From an uncultured Gammaproteobacteria bacterium (GTDB lineage: Bacteria > Patescibacteriota > Microgenomatia > JALYQM01), in contig CAYOFQ010000001.1 of assembly GCA_964403585.1 (NCBI GenBank), positions 712,630-776,629 of the forward strand: a stretch of DNA of 64,000 nucleotides, in the 5' to 3' direction. The translations under genes were made by a program, and so were the position numbers. Below the pieces are notes generated by a model, which was not told the origin of the DNA, searched no databases, and saw only the letters and a program-made list of their open reading frames with translations. Position 1 is the stretch's first letter. Each line of letters opens with the position of its first letter. Below are positions 4,230-54,791 of the stretch, piece after piece.

Positions 4230-4963
4230 TGAATACCAAAGCCATTACAACAGAAAAAGAAAACTTAAAAGAAGAGATACAGTCATTCATTCTTGGGGGT
4301 GAACTTAGTCGAAGATTATCATCAACACAGAAAGATCTCTGTATCAAAACATCACTCGCCTTTAACTTAAACCCGTTAAAGAGAGAAGTTCACTTTGTCC
4401 CGTTTAACAACGATATTAAAATTGTTGTCGGGTACGAAGTATATTTAAAGCGGGCAGAGAAGTCCGGCAAACTCAACGGCTGGAGAGTAGATATTGATGG
4501 AGCAGGCTCCAATATGAAAGCAGTTGTCACCATTAACCGTAAAGACTGGGAAAAACCATTCGTGCACGAAGTATTTTTAGTCGAAGCACGCCAGTCAACA
4601 CCACTCTGGCTAAAGATGCCACGCTTCATGCTTAAAAAAGTTGCGATTGCCCAGGCATTTCGCTTAGCCTTTCCGGAAGAACTCGGCGGTCTCCCGTATA
4701 TGCCGGAGGAAGTCGGGTTGGAAGGAGTGACACAACCTGAAGAGAAAAAGAATGTCGCGGTGAATACACCTCCCAAGGTACACCACACTATTCTCACTTC
4801 TGCTCCACGCGCTATTAAATTAGAAAAAATTCAGTGCGAAAAGTGTCAGAGGGAAATTACACCGGGCATCAAAGCCTTTAGTGAAAAGAATTTTGGACGA
4901 GTTTTGTGCATGACGTGTCAGAAAACAGCTAAATCTGCGACTCCTGTACAAGCGACAGCCTAA
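4230..4963 (+). CDS. recT: RecT-family single-strand annealing protein with C-terminal Cys4 zinc-ribbon
   Basis: WLKMPRFMLKKVAIAQAFRLAFPEELGG matches the E. coli RecT HPERMLRHKAMIQCARLAFG block. The C-terminus is CEKCQ...CMTCQ. The start was moved to the M at 4230, which has the aggagaaagtatATG RBS, because 4139..4229 is the repeated element. Confidence 0.7.
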
Positions 4964-4989
4964 ATAACGTTGCGCTGCCCGCAACAACA

Positions 4990-5020
4990 AAAAGCCATCT
5001 CTTTACGGGGTGGCTTTTTT
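4990..5020 (+). terminator. Rho-independent terminator after recT
   Basis: Hairpin agccatctctttacggggtggct followed by TTTTT. Confidence 0.6.
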
Positions 5021-5036
5021 ATAGCACAATTATCCT

Positions 5037-6557
5037 ATGTTAACAAAAATTGCCTCGGCGGCCATCGTCGGCTTAGAGGCAAAACTCGTCACAATTGAAG
5101 TTGACATACAATCACAGGGCTTGCCACACTTCATCATCGTCGGACTTCCCGATAAATCAGTTGATGAATCCAAAGAGCGTGTTCGCAGCGCGATCAAAAA
5201 TAGCGGATTTGAATTTCCAAACAAGAAGATTACCGTCAACATGGCACCTGCCGATGTTTTTAAAGAAGGTTCACGCTTTGATCTGCCACTGGCACTCGGC
5301 ATACTTGCAGCTTCCGGGCAGATCAATAATACCTCTCTCGATACTAAATTATTTTACGGCGAACTCTCTTTAGATGGCACCATCAAACCGGTACGGGGGA
5401 GTGTATTAATTGCAATCTCAGCAAAAGAAGCCGAAATACAAGAGCTGTATGTCCCGGCAGACAATGCTGCCGAAGCCCGTATCATTGAAGGAAGTAAAAT
5501 CTATGCCTGCCAAAAGTTATCGCAGCTTGCCAACTATTTTAATGAAAAAGAAATACTCACCTCTTTCAGTTACATTCCGGCCGGAACTATCAGGCCAACA
5601 ACCAATTCTACCGATATCGCCGAAGTACGAGGACAGCTCCAAGCAAAACGGGCATTGGAAATTAGCGCTGCCGGTGGGCATAACTGCATCTTAATCGGGA
5701 ATCCTGGCGCCGGTAAAACACTCCTGGCAAAAACTTTTCCATCCATTCTGCCGGATATTACTCCCGAAGAATCAATTGAACTCACCAAACTCTACAGTAT
5801 CTCAGGGTACCTTGATCAAAACATGCCCATAATTACTGAGCGGCCATTTCGGCACCCGCACCATACCGGAAGTGTATCTTCAATAGTTGGCGGTGGATCA
5901 AACCCGAAACCGGGTGAAATTTCACTCGCACATCGGGGAGTTTTATTCCTGGATGAATTTCTCGAATTTCCCAAAGCAGTGCTGGAATCATTACGCCAAC
6001 CGCTTGAGGATGGAACGATGACTGTTTCCCGGGCTGCGCTGACGGTAACCTTTCCGGCAAAATTTATTCTGCTGGCCGCCTGTAACCCCTGCCCGTGCGG
6101 CTATGCATTTAGTACCGAAGCAGGAAAACAGTGCACCTGTTCACAACTTCAACTCGCGAACTATCAGAAAAAACTATCCGGACCGATTCTTGATCGCATT
6201 GATCTCCAAATTAAAATCCGCTCAGTACCGGTACACGAATTAACACAGCTGGAAAGGGGAGAATCCTCTCAGGTAATCCGAGACCGGGTACAAGCAGCCA
6301 GAAGTATTCAAAAGGAAAGACTAACGGGATTACATAAATATACCAATGGCGAAATGACCTCTGAAGAGGTCCAAAAACTCTGTTCATTATCAGGTGATGC
6401 CGCCGCGCTTATGAGCCAGGCAGCGGCTAAAATGAATTTATCAGCCCGTTCATATTTTCGGACAATCAAAGTGGCCCAGACTATCGCCGATCTGGCGGGA
6501 GAAACAGTAATTACCCAACAGCATGTCGCCGAATCACTACAGTACCGACTGAGTTGA
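5037..6557 (+). CDS. comM: YifB/ComM family Mg-chelatase-like AAA+ ATPase
   Basis: Lon-like N-terminal domain (LPDKSVDESKERVRSAIKNSGFEFP, DLPLALGILAA). AAA+ Walker A GNPGAGKT. Cys-rich insert CNPCPCGY. Length is 506 aa. Confidence 0.85.
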   Translation: MLTKIASAAIVGLEAKLVTIEVDIQSQGLPHFIIVGLPDKSVDESKERVRSAIKNSGFEFPNKKITVNMAPADVFKEGSRFDLPLALGILAASGQINNTSLDTKLFYGELSLDGTIKPVRGSVLIAISAKEAEIQELYVPADNAAEARIIEGSKIYACQKLSQLANYFNEKEILTSFSYIPAGTIRPTTNSTDIAEVRGQLQAKRALEISAAGGHNCILIGNPGAGKTLLAKTFPSILPDITPEESIELTKLYSISGYLDQNMPIITERPFRHPHHTGSVSSIVGGGSNPKPGEISLAHRGVLFLDEFLEFPKAVLESLRQPLEDGTMTVSRAALTVTFPAKFILLAACNPCPCGYAFSTEAGKQCTCSQLQLANYQKKLSGPILDRIDLQIKIRSVPVHELTQLERGESSQVIRDRVQAARSIQKERLTGLHKYTNGEMTSEEVQKLCSLSGDAAALMSQAAAKMNLSARSYFRTIKVAQTIADLAGETVITQQHVAESLQYRLS

Positions 6558-6595: not shown

Positions 6596-7495
6596 ATGAA
6601 AGTATTACTTACCGATGTTACCGGTGTCGTCGGATCGCGTGTTCTGGATATTCTCTTAAAAAAGAATCATGATGTTTACGTTCTGGTGCATAATCCTGCA
6701 CGTCTGGAAGAGTTCCAGCACAAAGGAGTTCATGCCTTGAGCGGCAATGCCGAAGAAAACGGATCGTGGCTTGGCCAGTTACCGGAGGAACTTGATTATG
6801 TGATCAACAGTATCGTCCCCCAACTGCCTGCCCGTGTATCACTCAAGCAAATCGAGGAAACGTACGCACCTCTCATGTTTAATATTACGAAAAATCTACT
6901 CTATGCAGCAACAAAAACTAAAGCCAAACACTTTTACCAAACAGCCGACGCGCACATCTATCTCAATACCGGTAATGTTGTCAACGAACGCACCGGATTC
7001 AACCGCGATGCGGGTAATTACGGCAGACTATTTATGGAGATGATTCCCTATGTGCAAAGTCAGAAGGGAATTCCTGTCACGGTTTGTGTCCATGGACTTA
7101 TATATGATTCAACAGGGAACACCATCCCCGAAATTCCGGCCACTGCCGGACGGTTGCCAATAGTAGGCGGCGGTGAAAACTTTATGCAACTCACCCATGC
7201 TGATGATTTAGCTGCCGGAATAGTATTTGCCATTGAGAAAAATTGTGAGGCGCCTGTACTCAACATTGTTGATGACAAACCGGTAACTCAAAAAGAATTT
7301 ATACAAATACTCGCCATGAAACGTCAGCAAAGTACTGCACCGGTACCAAAATTTTTAGCTACACCCTTATTTGGCGAAGTACTGACTAATACCTTATCTG
7401 AATCGCTCCAGGTTAATAATGATGACCTCAAAGCAATGGGGTATTGGCTGAAATTCCCTGATATACGGGCCGGATTTGCACTCGGACTTACTTGA
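6596..7495 (+). CDS. NAD(P)-binding SDR family protein (NmrA/epimerase-like)
   Basis: N-terminal Rossmann motif LLTDVTGVVGSRV. Length is 299 aa. Confidence 0.6.
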   Translation: MKVLLTDVTGVVGSRVLDILLKKNHDVYVLVHNPARLEEFQHKGVHALSGNAEENGSWLGQLPEELDYVINSIVPQLPARVSLKQIEETYAPLMFNITKNLLYAATKTKAKHFYQTADAHIYLNTGNVVNERTGFNRDAGNYGRLFMEMIPYVQSQKGIPVTVCVHGLIYDSTGNTIPEIPATAGRLPIVGGGENFMQLTHADDLAAGIVFAIEKNCEAPVLNIVDDKPVTQKEFIQILAMKRQQSTAPVPKFLATPLFGEVLTNTLSESLQVNNDDLKAMGYWLKFPDIRAGFALGLT

Positions 7496-7721
7496 TTACC
7501 TTAAAGAAGTAGAGAGCCAGTTCAATTGCAATCGCTGCTCCGCCAACCATCAGCGAACGCTTAATATCGTGGGCGTAGGCAGCAATTTCCTGGGTATTGC
7601 GTTCCGATTGTGAAAGTTTAGCAGTCGATGCTTCCTTACGGACCGTATTTAGCGAGACACCGAGTCCTTCGCTGCTGTTTTTCTTAAGTTCTTCCCGACG
7701 AATTTGTTTTTGTATTGCCAT
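7488..7721 (-). CDS. Small tail-anchored hypothetical protein (77 aa)
   Basis: ORF with a C-terminal TM helix. It overlaps the stop of the convergent gene. RBS is weak. Confidence 0.3.
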   Translation of the reverse strand: MAIQKQIRREELKKNSSEGLGVSLNTVRKEASTAKLSQSERNTQEIAAYAHDIKRSLMVGGAAIAIELALYFFKVIK

Positions 7722-8969: not shown

Positions 8970-9003
8970 CTCATAACACTACTCCTGCCCGAAAGGAGAA
9001 CCT

Positions 9004-9585
9004 ATGCTGAATGATCTATTTATCTCTAAAGTTCGGGTCAAAATGTTGCAGCTCTTCATGCTGAATCCCACTCAAATGTTCCACGTCCGTGAAATAGTTC
9101 GTCAGGTCGACGAAGAGATCAATGCCGTTCGCCGCGAACTGCAGCGTATGGAAAAGGGTGGCATGGTTCGATCCGAATGGCGTGCCAATCGCCGTTATTA
9201 TGAGTTCCGTAAAGAGTATCTCTTCTATTCCGAACTTCTTGCCATGATGAATAAAATTGGTGGCTTAGGCGGGGAAATTATCCAAAATCGTGCCAAACTC
9301 GGGAAGGTTAAGTTTGCGTTTATCTCAGGAGGGTTCGCCCGCGGCAAAAACCCCGGCCCCAAAGACGTCGAACTCCTCGTAGTGGGAACAATCGTGCTCC
9401 CGGAGCTTTCGGCACTGGTAAAAAATGAAGAAGTGAAGCGCGCTCGAGAAATTAACTATACCGTCATGGCCGAAGATGAGTACAAATACCGCGTTACCCG
9501 TCGTGACCCCTTCATTTTAGACGTTCTGGAACGTCCGCGCATCATGCTGATCGGTGAAGAAGAAGCCCTTTTGGCTGACGTGTAG
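9004..9585 (+). CDS. wHTH + minimal nucleotidyltransferase domain protein
   Basis: N-terminal winged-helix-like region. C-terminal FISGGFARGKNPGPKDVELLVVG resembles the Pol-beta-type NTase GSxARG...D.DL motif. Confidence 0.45.
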   Translation: MLNDLFISKVRVKMLQLFMLNPTQMFHVREIVRQVDEEINAVRRELQRMEKGGMVRSEWRANRRYYEFRKEYLFYSELLAMMNKIGGLGGEIIQNRAKLGKVKFAFISGGFARGKNPGPKDVELLVVGTIVLPELSALVKNEEVKRAREINYTVMAEDEYKYRVTRRDPFILDVLERPRIMLIGEEEALLADV

Positions 9586-9599
9586 AATATCCCATAGTA

Positions 9600-9628
9600 T
9601 TGACATATAGGTTAAAGTGTGGTAATAT
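9600..9628 (+). promoter_or_regulatory. Consensus sigma70-type promoter (TTGACA-17-TAATAT)
   Basis: TTGACA at 9600-9605, a 17-nt spacer, TAATAT at 9623-9628. Confidence 0.55.
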
Positions 9629-9634
9629 AACACT

Positions 9635-10117
9635 ACCTTAAGAGTAGGTGAACTCAATTTGAGCTCAACTCTGCTCGAGAGGGGTGAGTTTAAGCCCACT
9701 TGCACATTCACACGAGAGGCAGATTACTCCTAATCTACGGAACGGGAAGTAGTCCAACGAAGCTTCTTGTTGAATAAACATCAAACCTCGCCACTATGTA
9801 CCGGCTCCTAAAATAGGAGGAAGGTTAAGGCCTCGCAGACCCTGAGCTCAAACTCAGGCCAATTTGCGTAGGTGTTATCTTCATTTTTCTCGAAATATTT
9901 GTTGTGCTAAGCCAAGGTCGCTTCCTTTTATCCGAAGCTCACCTGAACCGCGGCTTGTAGCCCCGGTTGACTAAATTGCCATCTCGGATTTCCGAGTATC
10001 TTTAGCGACTGAGTCTACAAGCCGCGACTCAAAGTGAGTTTGAAACCCTGCAGAGGTTTCAAGTACGTACTCTGTACGTATCAAGGCTATGTGCATCACT
10101 CATAGGAGGCTTTACTC
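9635..10117 (+). promoter_or_regulatory. Long (~480 nt) highly structured non-coding leader / candidate large ncRNA
   Basis: No ORF longer than about 20 codons on the + strand. Several stems are present: a long-range 12-bp helix cgcggcttgtag/ctacaagccgcg (~9950/~10016) that encloses the hairpin ctcggatttccgag, plus hairpins cctgagctcaaactcagg and tgaaacc..ggtttca. Confidence 0.35.
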
Positions 10118-10372
10118 ATGTCCACGATCATCACAACCACCAACACCCGCCCGCTCAACCCGATCCTGACAGCACGCCAGCAGCTTCCCCGCGAAATTCG
10201 CCTCGGCCAGATTTGCTTTTACGAAGGCACCCTCGCCGAACAGGCCGAGTTTGCGCTGGAGATCCTCGAGAATTTCGAAGCTGCGTACGTTCCGTCGGAC
10301 GAAGGTGATGACTCCGATGTCGTTATGACCTGCGAAGGTGAAATCGATATGGGGCCGTGCCTGAACCTGTAA
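10118..10372 (+). CDS. Small acidic hypothetical protein (84 aa), GC-rich coding
   Basis: Strong RBS aggagg with 8-nt spacing. Codon usage is GC-rich (about 57% by eye) against an AT-richer neighbourhood. No homology recognised. Confidence 0.45.
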   Translation: MSTIITTTNTRPLNPILTARQQLPREIRLGQICFYEGTLAEQAEFALEILENFEAAYVPSDEGDDSDVVMTCEGEIDMGPCLNL

Positions 10373-10472
10373 GCTAGACCGGCAGCGCCGATCTGTTGAG
10401 CTTTGGAGCTCTGCTTCACTGCAATATACAGATCGGCGTCAGCCATCAAACAACAAACAAAGGAGAAAAACA

Positions 10473-10589
10473 ATGAACGATAACAAGATACGAGCAAAAG
10501 AAAAGAAAAATAACTTTAGACGTTTGAGTCTAAACTATATTTACCATTTACTTTTACTTCATATTTCTTTTCCACTCCGCCTCTCGTGA
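10473..10589 (+). CDS. Unannotated 38-codon small ORF (MNDNKIRAKEKKNNFRRLSLNYIYHLLLLHISFPLRLS)
   Basis: Consensus RBS aaaggag 7 nt upstream of the ATG. The N-terminus is basic and the C-terminus hydrophobic. It is below the ORF-track length cutoff. Confidence 0.3.
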   Translation: MNDNKIRAKEKKNNFRRLSLNYIYHLLLLHISFPLRLS

Positions 10590-10663
10590 CTTGTTTCTTA
10601 AATATGATAACTATTGTATTTAAAGAACAGGGTAAATAAATTATAATTTAACTAGGTAAAAAT

Positions 10664-11632
10664 ATGACCGAAGTAATTGACTATCCAGGTATTGAAATAA
10701 CACAATACACGCCGCCAAAGGAACGTTTTGTTGTTACGGTTGATCATTCTGAACTTTCGCGTGCGCAAAAAGTCGCAGGTATAGTTAATACTGTGCAACC
10801 CGATTTTGTCCGCGTTGCTCCACAATTTGATAATGAAGGCAAGATTGTTACGAGCTTTGACTTTCACGAAGAAATACCCGGTTGCCGAGGTGAATCAGCC
10901 GATATTTTCATTATGCTTTATGATTTGGCTGAAGCCTTAGAGCTAAGCCCAAAGGTCGAAGATCCAACTTCTACATTTGCGGACCAAGAGCAACAAATAA
11001 ATAATCTCGTGCGAACCAAACTCGATTTGTATCTCGAACAGAAGCGAGCGGTACAAGAAGCGAACCGTGAAGCTGAAAATAATAGACTCAACATCGCGAC
11101 AGAACCTACCTCGGAAGGAATTGACTCTCATATTTATATTGATACTGATCTTGATACTCGTGCCACCCTCCGTTTAGCAGACCGCGCGGCATCACTTGTT
11201 TTTGCAGAATTTATTAGCAACCGCACATTAGATATGTCTGAAGTGCGAAAACTCAGTATGTACCTAAGAATGGATTTGCCTGAATTAATTGTGAATACAG
11301 TCGAGGAAGAAGGCAAAAAGGGTACTCAAACAGCAGATGTGGGCATTAATTTTGCTCAAATCACTGGTCCCGACTCGTCTCAGGTACTCGAAGTAATGGT
11401 ATTTGATAAAAATAACCAATATCCTGAAGAAGTGCTTAAGCAGCTCAACAAGAACGATCTTCCAAAGAGAATCACATCAAGTAAAGAGTCCGAGGTGGAG
11501 GGACAAGATCGGGGCCACGGCTTAGTAAAGGTTATAAGTGACGTAAGAGAAGAGTTGCAAGGAAATATACGATTCGATAATACAGATACAGGCTCGTATG
11601 TGAGGATTACTGTCCCTCTCACTAGAAAATAA
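10664..11632 (+). CDS. Protein with C-terminal HATPase_c (anti-sigma-factor kinase RsbW/SpoIIAB-like) domain and an uncharacterised N-terminal domain
   Basis: C-terminal GHGLVKVISDV...GNIRFDNTDTGSYVRITVPL matches the G2/G3 boxes of GHKL ATPases. An upstream ATLRLADRAASLVFAEF block fits the RsbW-type N-box. Confidence 0.5.
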   Translation: MTEVIDYPGIEITQYTPPKERFVVTVDHSELSRAQKVAGIVNTVQPDFVRVAPQFDNEGKIVTSFDFHEEIPGCRGESADIFIMLYDLAEALELSPKVEDPTSTFADQEQQINNLVRTKLDLYLEQKRAVQEANREAENNRLNIATEPTSEGIDSHIYIDTDLDTRATLRLADRAASLVFAEFISNRTLDMSEVRKLSMYLRMDLPELIVNTVEEEGKKGTQTADVGINFAQITGPDSSQVLEVMVFDKNNQYPEEVLKQLNKNDLPKRITSSKESEVEGQDRGHGLVKVISDVREELQGNIRFDNTDTGSYVRITVPLTRK

Positions 11633-11663
11633 TTCACAAATAGAGTATACTACTATCACATTA

Positions 11664-11689
11664 CATACGTCTCGCAACGTATGTTTTTT
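11664..11689 (+). terminator. Rho-independent terminator
   Basis: acatacgt-ctcgca-acgtatgt hairpin followed by TTTTTT. Confidence 0.5.
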
Positions 11690-11724
11690 GCTGTTATAAG
11701 GATAAAATTGCACAAGGAGTTCAT

Positions 11725-11952
11725 ATGCCCGAATCCCGCAGTCACGGACATTTAATTATCGGAATTGATCAAAGAGGATCCGAAAAAATAGGCCGACCTG
11801 CTTCCGGAAGTGCAACCGAAGGTCCCGCTTTTTTCTTAACCGAGGCACCCCCCGCACGACGCGCACTTGCAGATAATACAGCCATAGACATTAAATCAGG
11901 AACTGGTGCCGGACGGGTGGACATTTCCGGTGGTCCGGTAACGCGTCGCTAA
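11725..11952 (+). CDS. Small Gly/Ala-rich hypothetical protein (75 aa)
   Basis: RBS aaggag. No TM segment, so it is not YajC. It lies immediately upstream of secD. Confidence 0.35.
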   Translation: MPESRSHGHLIIGIDQRGSEKIGRPASGSATEGPAFFLTEAPPARRALADNTAIDIKSGTGAGRVDISGGPVTRR

Positions 11953-11990
11953 TTGACTCTCACCTCAAATAAAAATATAATACCGCCATT

Positions 11991-38183: not shown

Positions 38184-38600
38184 TTGGCACCTCTCATACA
38201 TATAGCGCACCTATCAGCTCATCAATCGATCGGGCAAGTGCCCTTGTGCTGTAGGTCTTCTATCCAAGAAGTAAAGCGCTTCACGCGTTCGAGGAATCAA
38301 ACGAATAAAGCACCTTACTTCTTGGGGTGTCTGTCTTTTGCTGTTAAGGAACAAAATGCTGAAAGAACGTCGAAATCAAGCCCAATTGAGCTCAAAAGGA
38401 CAGACTTTTAGCTCTACTATTATATCACATTTGAGCTCAGAAGTAAATACTATAGGTTAATTTTTAGTTATGGAAAAGGCACTAAGGTTTGGTATAGACA
38501 GTATAGTTACGAAAAAAGCTTCGAGGCGAGGTGTCGTTGCCGACCCCAAGCTGAAACCTCTCGCACTGTATCCAGTCCCCTTAGTGCCTGATCCTGCACA

Positions 38601-54588: not shown

Positions 54589-54791
54589 AAATACCTATAC
54601 TGAACCTAACTAGACTATAGTAAAATGAGCTAGAATAAGCTCAAACTAACTATAATAGGCTGGATTATAGCAGAAAATAGGCTAAAAGTCAAATGCTATA
54701 GGATAGAACACCTCAAACTACAATGACCTATATCACATAAATAAATGCTCAGAGCATTACCTTGTGCTATTAACCGTGATAGAATAAAAGG

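Follow-up and report, generated by a model that had tools for sequence, protein, structure and literature searches.

The window analysed here, a 64,000-nucleotide (nt) stretch of contig CAYOFQ010000001.1 from a member of the Patescibacteriota, carries a gene for a winged-helix (wHTH) plus nucleotidyltransferase protein at positions 9004–9585 and, downstream of it, secD. The gap between them (9586–11990) holds a promoter, a long stretch without a sizeable open reading frame (ORF), a small ORF equipped with a Shine-Dalgarno (SD) sequence and a further structured region. The initial annotation had singled out positions 9600–10117 as a sigma70 promoter driving a ~480-nt, ORF-free leader and candidate large non-coding RNA. 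Comparison with homologous loci confirmed that the stretch corresponds to a genuine RNA, conserved and extensively folded. It appears to be the 5' part of a ~965-nt transcript running from ~9635 to ~10600, and may be purely a leader or also a non-coding RNA. The leader itself is therefore real and conserved, but the predicted functional unit is larger than first proposed, extending to ~10600 with a structured 3' domain that pairs back onto it.

Genes like the one upstream are common in Patescibacteria; the nearest named relatives of the wHTH-nucleotidyltransferase protein come from Microgenomates and Daviesbacteria metagenome-assembled genomes (MAGs), at ~62% identity. Homologous loci were obtained from the contigs encoding its closest homologs. 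Five further distinct versions of the element were found, each between the wHTH-nucleotidyltransferase gene and secD: L004 (MAG GCA_030855825.1), L007, L010, L038 and a short form, L008. Identical duplicates were also recovered (L012 of L004, L036 of L007 and L009 of L008). We refer to the window, L004, L007, L010 and L038 as the full-length versions (n = 5). The element occurs as a single copy per locus: neither nhmmer nor two covariance models revealed an additional copy in the window or among the 38 loci.

The element begins with a sigma-70-type promoter on the forward strand (9600–9628), made up of TTGACA (9600–9605), a 17-nt spacer and TAATAT (9623–9628), with an extended −10 TG at 9620–9621 and a predicted start at ~9635. 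Its earlier description as near-perfect held up. The site matches the consensus at 10 of 12 positions, making it the joint-best site in 9000–11000 in a promoter scan (tied with 10619–10647), and the −35 hexamer TTGACA and the spacing are retained at five of six homologous loci, including L004, L007, L008 and L010 (alignment A2).

Downstream of the predicted start, positions 9635–10117 contain only ORFs of 22–36 codons with TTG or GTG starts on the forward strand, plus a 26-codon ATG ORF at 10089 that overlaps the real start. The earlier statement that no ORF here exceeds about 20 codons slightly understated these lengths, but none of the short ORFs is conserved; homologs have others, differing in frame and position, or none. 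The 483-nt 5' stretch has a predicted minimum free energy (MFE) of −174.4 kcal/mol compared to −129.8 ± 5.7 kcal/mol for dinucleotide shuffles (z = −7.87; none of 100 shuffles as stable), in agreement with the high degree of structure first claimed for it. The minus strand of the same stretch folds with z = −5.9. The previously described 12-bp stem (9949–9960/10015–10026), which encloses the hairpin CTCGGATTTCCGAG, is present and its fold scores z = −6.5. All helices named in the initial annotation occur in the sequence, including the hairpins at 9841–9858, 10041–10061 and 10063–10080. However, the hairpin at 9841–9858 and those just before the ribosome binding site (RBS) are not conserved in sequence.

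Between the window and L004, L007, L008, L010 and L038, the wHTH-nucleotidyltransferase proteins are 86–96% identical and their third codon positions 38–47% identical, which indicates very strong purifying selection on this small protein across deeply diverged genomes. The RNA is 87.5% identical over 136 nt to L004 (the core of Domain 2, described below; third codon positions of the neighbouring gene, 47%) and 74% identical over 330 nt to L007. Because motifs and helices persist while neutral sites are saturated, we consider the element to be under selection as an RNA.

Covariation in two of the three domains of the 5' stretch points the same way. Domain 1 (D1, 9636–9699) consists of a three-part extended hairpin (9636–9682) followed by the hairpin P2 (9684–9699). 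In alignment A6 (n = 6), 90% of D1 cells are paired and 16 of 22 pairs are compensatory; none of 500 shuffles scored as high, and slid controls reached 29–51%. Domain 3 (D3, 9944–10031) is a long stem with an outer stem and an apical hairpin that both covary, around an invariant internal motif, UGUAGCCCCGGUUG/CUGAGUCUACA. In alignment A7 (n = 4), 91% of its cells are paired and 14 of 31 pairs are compensatory, again with no shuffle out of 500 as high and with slid controls at 27–38%. A covariance model of D1 (R1) matches the plus strand only, and one of D3 (R2) scores 81–99 bits on the plus strand compared to 29–40 bits on the minus strand; together, the plus-strand scores of R1 and R2 span 61–99 bits. 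This strand asymmetry fixes the orientation of the element to the plus strand. Homologous loci thus keep an ORF-free, similarly folded stretch in which D1 and D3 show compensatory changes despite saturated neutral sites. The check suggested in the initial annotation, whether conservation is independent of the downstream ORF, gave a positive answer, as that ORF is different in each homolog. The possibility it raised of a decayed pseudogene, with related genomes carrying a protein-coding gene here, was rejected: homologs share no conserved reading frame, and no intact gene is found at the homologous position.

Between D1 and D3, the linker GCACAUUCA (9702–9710) is near-invariant in five of six homologs and leads into Domain 2 (D2), the most sequence-conserved part of the element. 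The D2 core (9711–9840) is predicted from folds to comprise a local helix (P3/P3a), a small hairpin, the single-stranded segment CGCCACUAU (9789–9797) and a hairpin at 9805–9819. It opens with CACGAGAGGCAGA (LR1a, 9711–9723), the most conserved motif of all, within which GAGGCAGA is invariant in the five full-length versions. The hairpin at 9805–9819 carries an SD-like sequence, UAGGAGGAAGG (9814–9824), with no start codon behind it. Next come the variable hairpin CCUGAGCUCAAACUCAGG (9841–9858, from sequence and MFE fold), for which L004 has a deletion and L007 and L010 a different sequence (alignment A2), the pyrimidine-rich strand UGUUAUCUUCAUUUUUCUC...UUUGUUGUG (LR2a, 9872–9906) and, just 3' of it, the pyrimidine segment GCUUCCU (9920–9926), a candidate anti-SD. 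After D3, the spacer before the RBS (10027–10080) is predicted from sequence and MFE to form hairpins at 10027–10039, 10041–10061 and 10063–10080; homologs have apparently unrelated hairpins there, as judged by reading their sequences. Across the 5' stretch, the invariant single-stranded or internal-loop motifs are GCACAUUCA, CGCCACUAU, GRGGRAAGG and UGUAGCCCCGGUUG/CUGAGUCUACA. D2 is reduced in L038. The short form L008 has lost D2 together with the usual ORF and the 3' domain, but retains D1 and D3 at full model score (84 and 95 bits, respectively).

Conservation resumes right after each ORF stop, with a hairpin (H1), a purine-rich tract, a conserved apex and a pyrimidine-rich tract ending in (A)CUCCGCCUCUC. 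In the window, individual folds place H1 (10381–10444), a GC-rich hairpin, directly after the stop codon; its equivalents in L004, L007, L010 and L038 are strong hairpins of differing sequence, with loops that vary in length. It is followed by the purine-rich strand CAACAAACAAAGGAGAAAAACAAUGAACGAUAACA (LR2b, 10447–10486), the H2 apical region (10487–10575, from alignment A5 and folds) with its conserved apex GACGUUUGAGUC, and UCCGCCUCUCGUG (LR1b, 10576–10588). LR2b holds the SD and ATG of a 38-aa (amino acid), Lys-rich ORF (10473–10589) called as a gene in the public contig, inside the purine/pyrimidine hairpin. It is probably not a gene, and we rejected it as such: the frame is not kept among homologs, and at this place L038 reads ATG-TAA.

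Folding the whole transcript, from the predicted start to the end of the 3' domain, places two nested long-range helices, LR1 and LR2, in the MFE structure of four of five homologs. In LR1, CACGAGAGGC(AGA) at 9711–9723 pairs with (UCC)GCCUCUCGUG at 10576–10588, around a core formed by GAGAGGCAGA (9714–9723) and GCCUCUCGUG (10579–10588), so that the helix encloses the ORF. The window duplex has a predicted energy of −21.6 kcal/mol (none of 500 shuffles as good), and duplexes across the five full-length versions range from −15 to −21.6 kcal/mol (shuffle p ≤ 0.01). When the 5' motif was scanned against ~1.8 kb at each locus (563–670 scan windows, 598 at the present locus), the homologous 3' site was its top partner in all five, and LR1b outranked the local P3 partner (9762–9770 in the window) in all five. 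The helix flanks covary (CAC/GUG in the window, U/A in L004, AAC/GUU in L038 and GACAAC/GUUGUC in L010), and in L007 an inner CAGA/UCUG compensates. The 3' consensus pairing with GAGAGGCAGA is UCYGCCUCUC. LR2 pairs 9872–9906 with 10441–10486, at −26.3 kcal/mol in the window compared to −12.9 ± 2.9 kcal/mol for shuffles; it is less well supported than LR1, both strands being low in complexity. Two local helices, namely P3 in D2 and H2 at the 3' end, are in competition with LR1 and LR2, and two global folds are therefore plausible. Behind LR1b, the U-rich tail ACUUGUUUCUU (10589–10600) is the putative 3' end, and the transcript probably ends near 10600. Compared with the window, L010 and L038 have more distinct U-runs behind the LR1b helix.

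The ORF enclosed by these helices begins, as first annotated, with an RBS and encodes a tiny acidic protein: the SD AGGAGG lies at 10104–10109, the ATG at 10118, and the 84-aa product (10118–10372) has 15 Asp and Glu residues compared to 4 Lys and Arg, with no hydrophobic segment. In all five full-length versions, SD and ATG are 6–9 nt apart and are followed by an ORF of 69–99 aa; with L008 included, all six promoters and leaders precede an SD-equipped ORF. The GC content of the ORF is above that of its flanks in five of five, and third-position GC (GC3) is clearly above the overall GC of the same ORF in three of five (0.71 in the window ORF versus 0.54 in the neighbouring gene), a pattern consistent with real coding. 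Beyond this constant arrangement, the encoded proteins differ. Those of L004, L007 and L010 start with hydrophobic, signal-peptide-like segments and share a faint Cys-x5-6-Cys-Leu/Ala motif (E = 0.002–0.01 in a five-sequence database); a profile search with the putatively secreted L007 and L010 proteins returned only those two. The L038 ORF encodes a hydrophilic peptide of 69 aa that is predicted to be soluble and helical. No ORF of the island gave a match in Pfam, PADLOC or PHROGs.

Two further observations concern these ORFs. HMMER matches of the 84-aa protein among 1.84 billion proteins to three unrelated repeat proteins (DUF7507, TPR-CHAT and Big_2) were judged spurious and repeat-inflated. 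Residues 27–64 (IRLGQICFYEGTLAEQAEFALEILENFEAAYVPSDEGD) show ~40% identity to each repeat of the TPR-CHAT protein P0125, which may reflect a single TPR-like helical hairpin or a repeat-inflated chance match. In L008, the ORF at 5957–6429 reads MEDQQPGETFGA, an in-frame TAG and then 145 further codons in the same frame. The independent assemblies L008 and L009 are identical over their shared stretch (L008 5641–6091), TAG included; L009 ends there. This ORF could be either a nonsense-mutated pseudogene or a case of stop-codon read-through or recoding.

We also predicted how accessible the SD is within the folded RNA. In the window, its probability of being unpaired is 0.16–0.33 with the leader attached compared to 0.40 for the local sequence alone. 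Mean values across the versions are 0.00–0.33 with the leader compared to 0.11–0.59 locally, and addition of the 3' domain changes little. The candidate anti-SD (9920–9926) can pair with the SD of the ORF in five of five versions, although the shuffle p-values are only 0.003–0.25. A pairing of CGCCACUAUG with the window SD, seen in the MFE of the 5' domain, was not reproduced in homologs and was dropped.

Searches for known families returned no identity for the element. With Rfam 15 covariance models, which include those for riboswitches, T-box and r-protein leaders, tmRNA, RNase P, 6S, SRP, OLE, GOLLD, ROOL, HEARO and raiA, the whole window contained only four tRNAs at the gathering score and the five homologous loci gave no match; relaxed searches (E ≤ 10 or 5) of 9500–10250 and 10100–10700 gave only sub-threshold chance matches, and ARAGORN found no transfer-messenger RNA (tmRNA) in the window. 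The first impression that the stretch matches no known RNA family therefore stands. Two resemblances noticed by eye were rejected: GGAGGAAGGU recalls the P4 consensus of RNase P, and neither P4 pairing nor the covariance model supports this; GUACCG recalls a T-box and is likewise unsupported by the model. We also rejected a mobile element or phage, as there is one copy per locus and the island contains no transposase or reverse transcriptase. Phages and plasmids searched with blastn gave no match, and the D3 pattern had no match in viral contigs. Neither Rfam nor the literature searched describes a structured RNA of this kind from Patescibacteria (the candidate phyla radiation, CPR).

The distribution of the element is narrow and patchy. 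It is absent in the equally close relatives L037, where only 48 nt (695–742) separate the wHTH gene from secD, and L005, where a ferric-reductase gene occupies the gap (4583–6031); we therefore regard it as dispensable. In more distant relatives (52–61% amino acid identity), the wHTH gene adjoins secD or a small AbrB-like gene unrelated to the element. An AbiEii/AbiEi pair lies in the same gap in three relatives (L004, L007 and L011), with various orphan ORFs elsewhere; the gap spans 4583–7793 in L004 and 5529–8589 in L007. A necessary link to AbiE was rejected since the pair is missing in the window, L008, L010 and L038. Judged from these arrangements, the wHTH-secD gap is an insertion hot spot and the element a lineage-restricted, dispensable occupant of it. 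An exact search for GAGGCAGATTACTCCT-N45-75-CGCCACTA matched only the genome of L004 in a genome contig collection and nothing in metagenome contigs; L010 contains the pattern and went unmatched, its sample not being part of the metagenome collection. A protein-anchored metagenome scan found only two close loci.

Several neighbouring features of the window should also be recorded. CCYATAGYA, immediately 5' of the −35 hexamer (9591–9599), is retained at homologous promoters. It occurs seven times in the window against 1.2 expected (9591–9599, 38448–38456(−), 54694–54702(−), 3435(−), 57920, 58029(−) and 60238), and in three cases (9591–9599, 38448(−) and 54694(−)) it abuts a −35/−10 pair. The 54694(−) promoter leads to a 432-aa ORF and the 38448(−) promoter to a ~230-nt leader and then a 156-aa ORF. 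Because these two unrelated promoters also have the motif upstream, we rejected it as an operator specific to this RNA. It looks like a general promoter-proximal motif, and may be an UP-like element or a regulator site of this organism. Farther downstream, an orphan 322-aa ORF (10664–11632) lies in a low-GC stretch (0.33–0.43) with its own promoter-like site at 10619–10647. Searches of Pfam, PADLOC and PHROGs returned nothing for it, and the homologous islands lack it; on visual inspection, the C-terminal end (GHGLVKVISDV...) bears a faint likeness to the G-box of GHKL ATPases. An intrinsic-terminator-like hairpin, ACAUACGUCUCGCAACGUAUGUUUUUU (11655–11690), 81% identical to its L004 counterpart, is followed by an SD and a small ORF (11725–11952) just 5' of the secD promoter; that ORF is 75 aa long in the window, 86 aa in L007 and ~43 aa in L004, and is strongly divergent. 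Elsewhere, a 77-aa minus-strand ORF (7488–7721(−)) between an epimerase-like gene and a DUF3048 gene has counterparts of 68–79 aa called at the same place in L004, L007, L008 and L010, and is probably a real, conserved small gene.

The reading that we tentatively favour, without regarding it as established, is that the element is a cis-acting structured RNA chassis: a self-contained mRNA of ~965 nt that controls the stability and translation of a fast-evolving small protein. Its computational basis is the promoter, the domain structure with its covariation, the complementarity and conservation of LR1, and the constant SD-ORF arrangement. Pairing between the 5' and 3' untranslated regions (UTRs) is known to control bacterial mRNAs such as hok (PMC9841398), hbs (PMC5737220) and icaR (PMC3868564). 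In the present case, the 5'-terminal stem-loops and the 5'-3' closure would shield the mRNA from ribonucleases, and the leader would keep the SD paired, holding default translation low. Competition between the local helices (P3 and H2) and the long-range ones (LR1 and LR2) could provide a refolding step, from co-transcriptional to post-transcriptional structure, that times translation of the ORF. Nucleotides that are invariant in loops and internal loops probably serve in contacts with some factor or in tertiary structure.

A number of observations weigh against this reading. Conservation of the RNA greatly exceeds that of its cargo, whereas a simple gene with UTRs would lead one to expect the reverse: the ORFs are orphans, the 84-aa one having no match but itself among 5.8 billion clusters, and neither the window protein nor the L038 protein resembles those of the other versions. 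Invariant loop nucleotides and a 480-nt, multi-domain leader exceed what stabilisation or SD masking needs. No conserved anti-SD could be defined, as the partner of the SD in ensemble folds differs between homologs, and LR2, whose tracts are low-complexity purine and pyrimidine, is no better than the best of 200 shuffles in three homologs. Both transcript ends are predictions, and a terminator scan of the window made no call at 10590. Finally, every statistic rests on 4–6 sequences from one narrow clade.

The excess of RNA over protein conservation is what would be expected of a dual-function or stand-alone regulatory RNA (a ribonucleoprotein component, a protein sponge or a base-pairing regulator) in which the ORF is a secondary passenger, comparable to hld in RNAIII of Staphylococcus aureus. 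We consider this possible, if doubtful. Motifs and helices, and not ORFs, are kept across saturated divergence; single-stranded and internal-loop motifs are invariant; long-range helices close off domains; and L008 retains D1 and D3 at full score without D2, the usual ORF or the 3' domain, with D3 directly followed by U7. However, an SD-equipped ORF follows every version, L008 included, and sequence reading and a terminator scan of the window found no terminator between the 5' domain and the ORF in five of six versions. No target or partner could be proposed from the 64 kb and six homologs, and the absence of the element from the equally close L037 and L005 shows that the cell can do without it. 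The terminator-like arrangement of L008, in which the D3 stem runs into U7, also bears on the idea of a sensor, in which recognition of a metabolite, ion, tRNA or protein by the 5' domain would switch transcription termination, or the translation of whichever ORF follows. The multi-helix architecture, the invariant internal-loop nucleotides of D3 (GCCCC/GAGUC) and D2, and the predicted occlusion of the SD with the leader attached would all fit a sensor. Yet U7 follows D3 in L008 only, no U-tract follows D3 in the window, L004 or L007, and the sole terminator call upstream of the ORF in the window is a weak 5-bp hairpin (9983–9996) within D3. No antiterminator pairing, and no mutually exclusive terminator-antiterminator pair, was identified 5' of the ORF. 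Moreover, the genes that follow are orphans unrelated to one another and point to no metabolic theme, and no Rfam riboswitch, T-box or leader family appeared even at E ≤ 10. We therefore regard a sensor leader as unlikely.

Occlusion of the SD, the 5'-3' closure and the competing, metastable-like local helices also resemble the scheme of hok (PMC9841398), a type I toxin-antitoxin mRNA in which 5'-3' pairing locks the RNA, 3' trimming activates a toxic protein and an antisense RNA exerts control. The variable island adjoins AbiEii/AbiEi in three relatives, and the ORFs of L004, L007 and L010 start with a hydrophobic segment. Even so, a hok-like system is very unlikely here. The window ORF is acidic and hydrophilic, the L038 ORF encodes a soluble helical peptide, and those of L007 and L010 resemble signal-peptide proteins rather than membrane toxins; at 69–99 aa, the ORFs also exceed the size of a typical toxin (<60 aa), and the unit is 2–3 times the size of known type I toxin mRNAs. 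A consensus scan, which weak promoters could escape, found no antisense promoter overlapping the SD and start region and none near 10050–10200; the sole minus-strand promoter-like site (9652–9624) is directed away from it. The last alternative is that the element is non-functional DNA, a decayed pseudogene or mobile-element remnant whose inverted repeats mimic RNA helices. The gap is an insertion hot spot, empty in L037 and with other cargo in L005, L004, L007 and L011, and LR1 consists of perfect Watson-Crick inverted repeats that could be terminal repeats at the level of DNA. We consider this highly improbable. Sequence and structure are kept despite saturated neutral sites, no homolog has a conserved reading frame, and G-U pairs and the strong strand asymmetry of the models point to RNA. 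Each locus has a single copy, always at one and the same place in the chromosome; the LR1 repeats include neither the promoter nor D1, and there is no phage or plasmid similarity.

Among known systems, hok mRNA, with its tac/fbi closure and metastable nascent hairpins (PMC9841398), shares with the element a small ORF within an end-paired transcript, competition between local and long-range helices, and an SD that is occluded when the RNA is closed; the long-range 5'-3' pairing that characterises it is found computationally, as LR1, in all five full-length versions. In contrast to hok (~400 nt), the element is ~965 nt long and has three covarying 5' domains, its cargo is not a conserved hydrophobic toxin, and there is no evident antisense RNA gene and no sequence or Rfam similarity. 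In Bacillus subtilis hbs (PMC5737220) and Staphylococcus aureus icaR (PMC3868564), the 3' UTR pairs with the mRNA's own structured 5' UTR around a small protein, and this pairing governs translation and the access of RNases. Conserved complementarity of this kind is also present here, with an effect on RNase cleavage or translation that is a prediction. The proportions are reversed, however: in hbs and icaR the protein is conserved and the UTRs are modest, whereas here the UTRs (~480 and ~230 nt) are conserved and the protein is hypervariable.

Large regulatory RNAs offer a second set of comparisons. RNAIII of Staphylococcus aureus is 514 nt long, has 14 stem-loops with long-range helices closing its domains, and encodes delta-haemolysin. 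Such dual-function RNAs and the element have in common a large size, many hairpins, long-range helices that close domains, and a small encoded peptide that is often secreted; SD-plus-ATG ORFs, predicted to be translated, are found in all full-length homologs. RNAIII and the element share no homology and belong to different phyla. In the element the ORF, of 69–99 aa, comes after the main structured domain, and it has no known targets in trans. OLE, GOLLD, ROOL, HEARO/omega RNA and raiA are similar in being hundreds of nucleotides long, with many helices, a narrow or patchy distribution and a biochemical function that was unknown at discovery. None of their covariance models matches the element at the gathering score or at E ≤ 10, those RNAs are not known to have a translated ORF closed by 5'-3' pairing, and no IscB/TnpB-type gene adjoins the element. 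A further likeness is to STAB-SD of Bacillus thuringiensis cryIIIA, an mRNA stabiliser. UAGGAGGAAGG (9814–9824) is likewise a conserved SD-like sequence far 5' of the start codon with no ORF behind it, but a hairpin half-conceals it, L007 and L038 have a weaker version, and it is a minor part of a much larger structure.

A bolder formulation, which we regard as speculative though possible, is that the element represents a new large RNA class: an ornate ~1-kb scaffold whose paired ends enclose a translated slot holding a lineage-specific, fast-replaced or diverging, often secreted small protein. The RNA would then be the selected entity, either a dual-function regulator or a platform for trialling new small proteins.

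The general kinds to which the element may belong, the structured mRNA with paired UTRs and the dual-function RNA, are already known. The novelty of the element lies in its size, in a leader of three domains, in the way the ends close around a hypervariable ORF, and in the phylum. The reach of the finding is limited by a narrow distribution, six distinct sequences from one clade of uncultivated ultra-small bacteria. Within that clade, because motifs and helices are kept where synonymous sites are randomised, the element matters to the cell. A large part of bacterial diversity belongs to the Patescibacteria (CPR), whose RNA-level regulation is almost unstudied. If the closed-chassis model is true, it would extend the UTR-UTR pairing of hok, hbs and icaR to a much larger and more elaborate RNA, and would offer a system for studying how ultra-small symbiotic bacteria express and turn over small effector-like proteins that may be secreted. 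If instead the RNA acts in trans, it would be a new class of large non-coding RNA.

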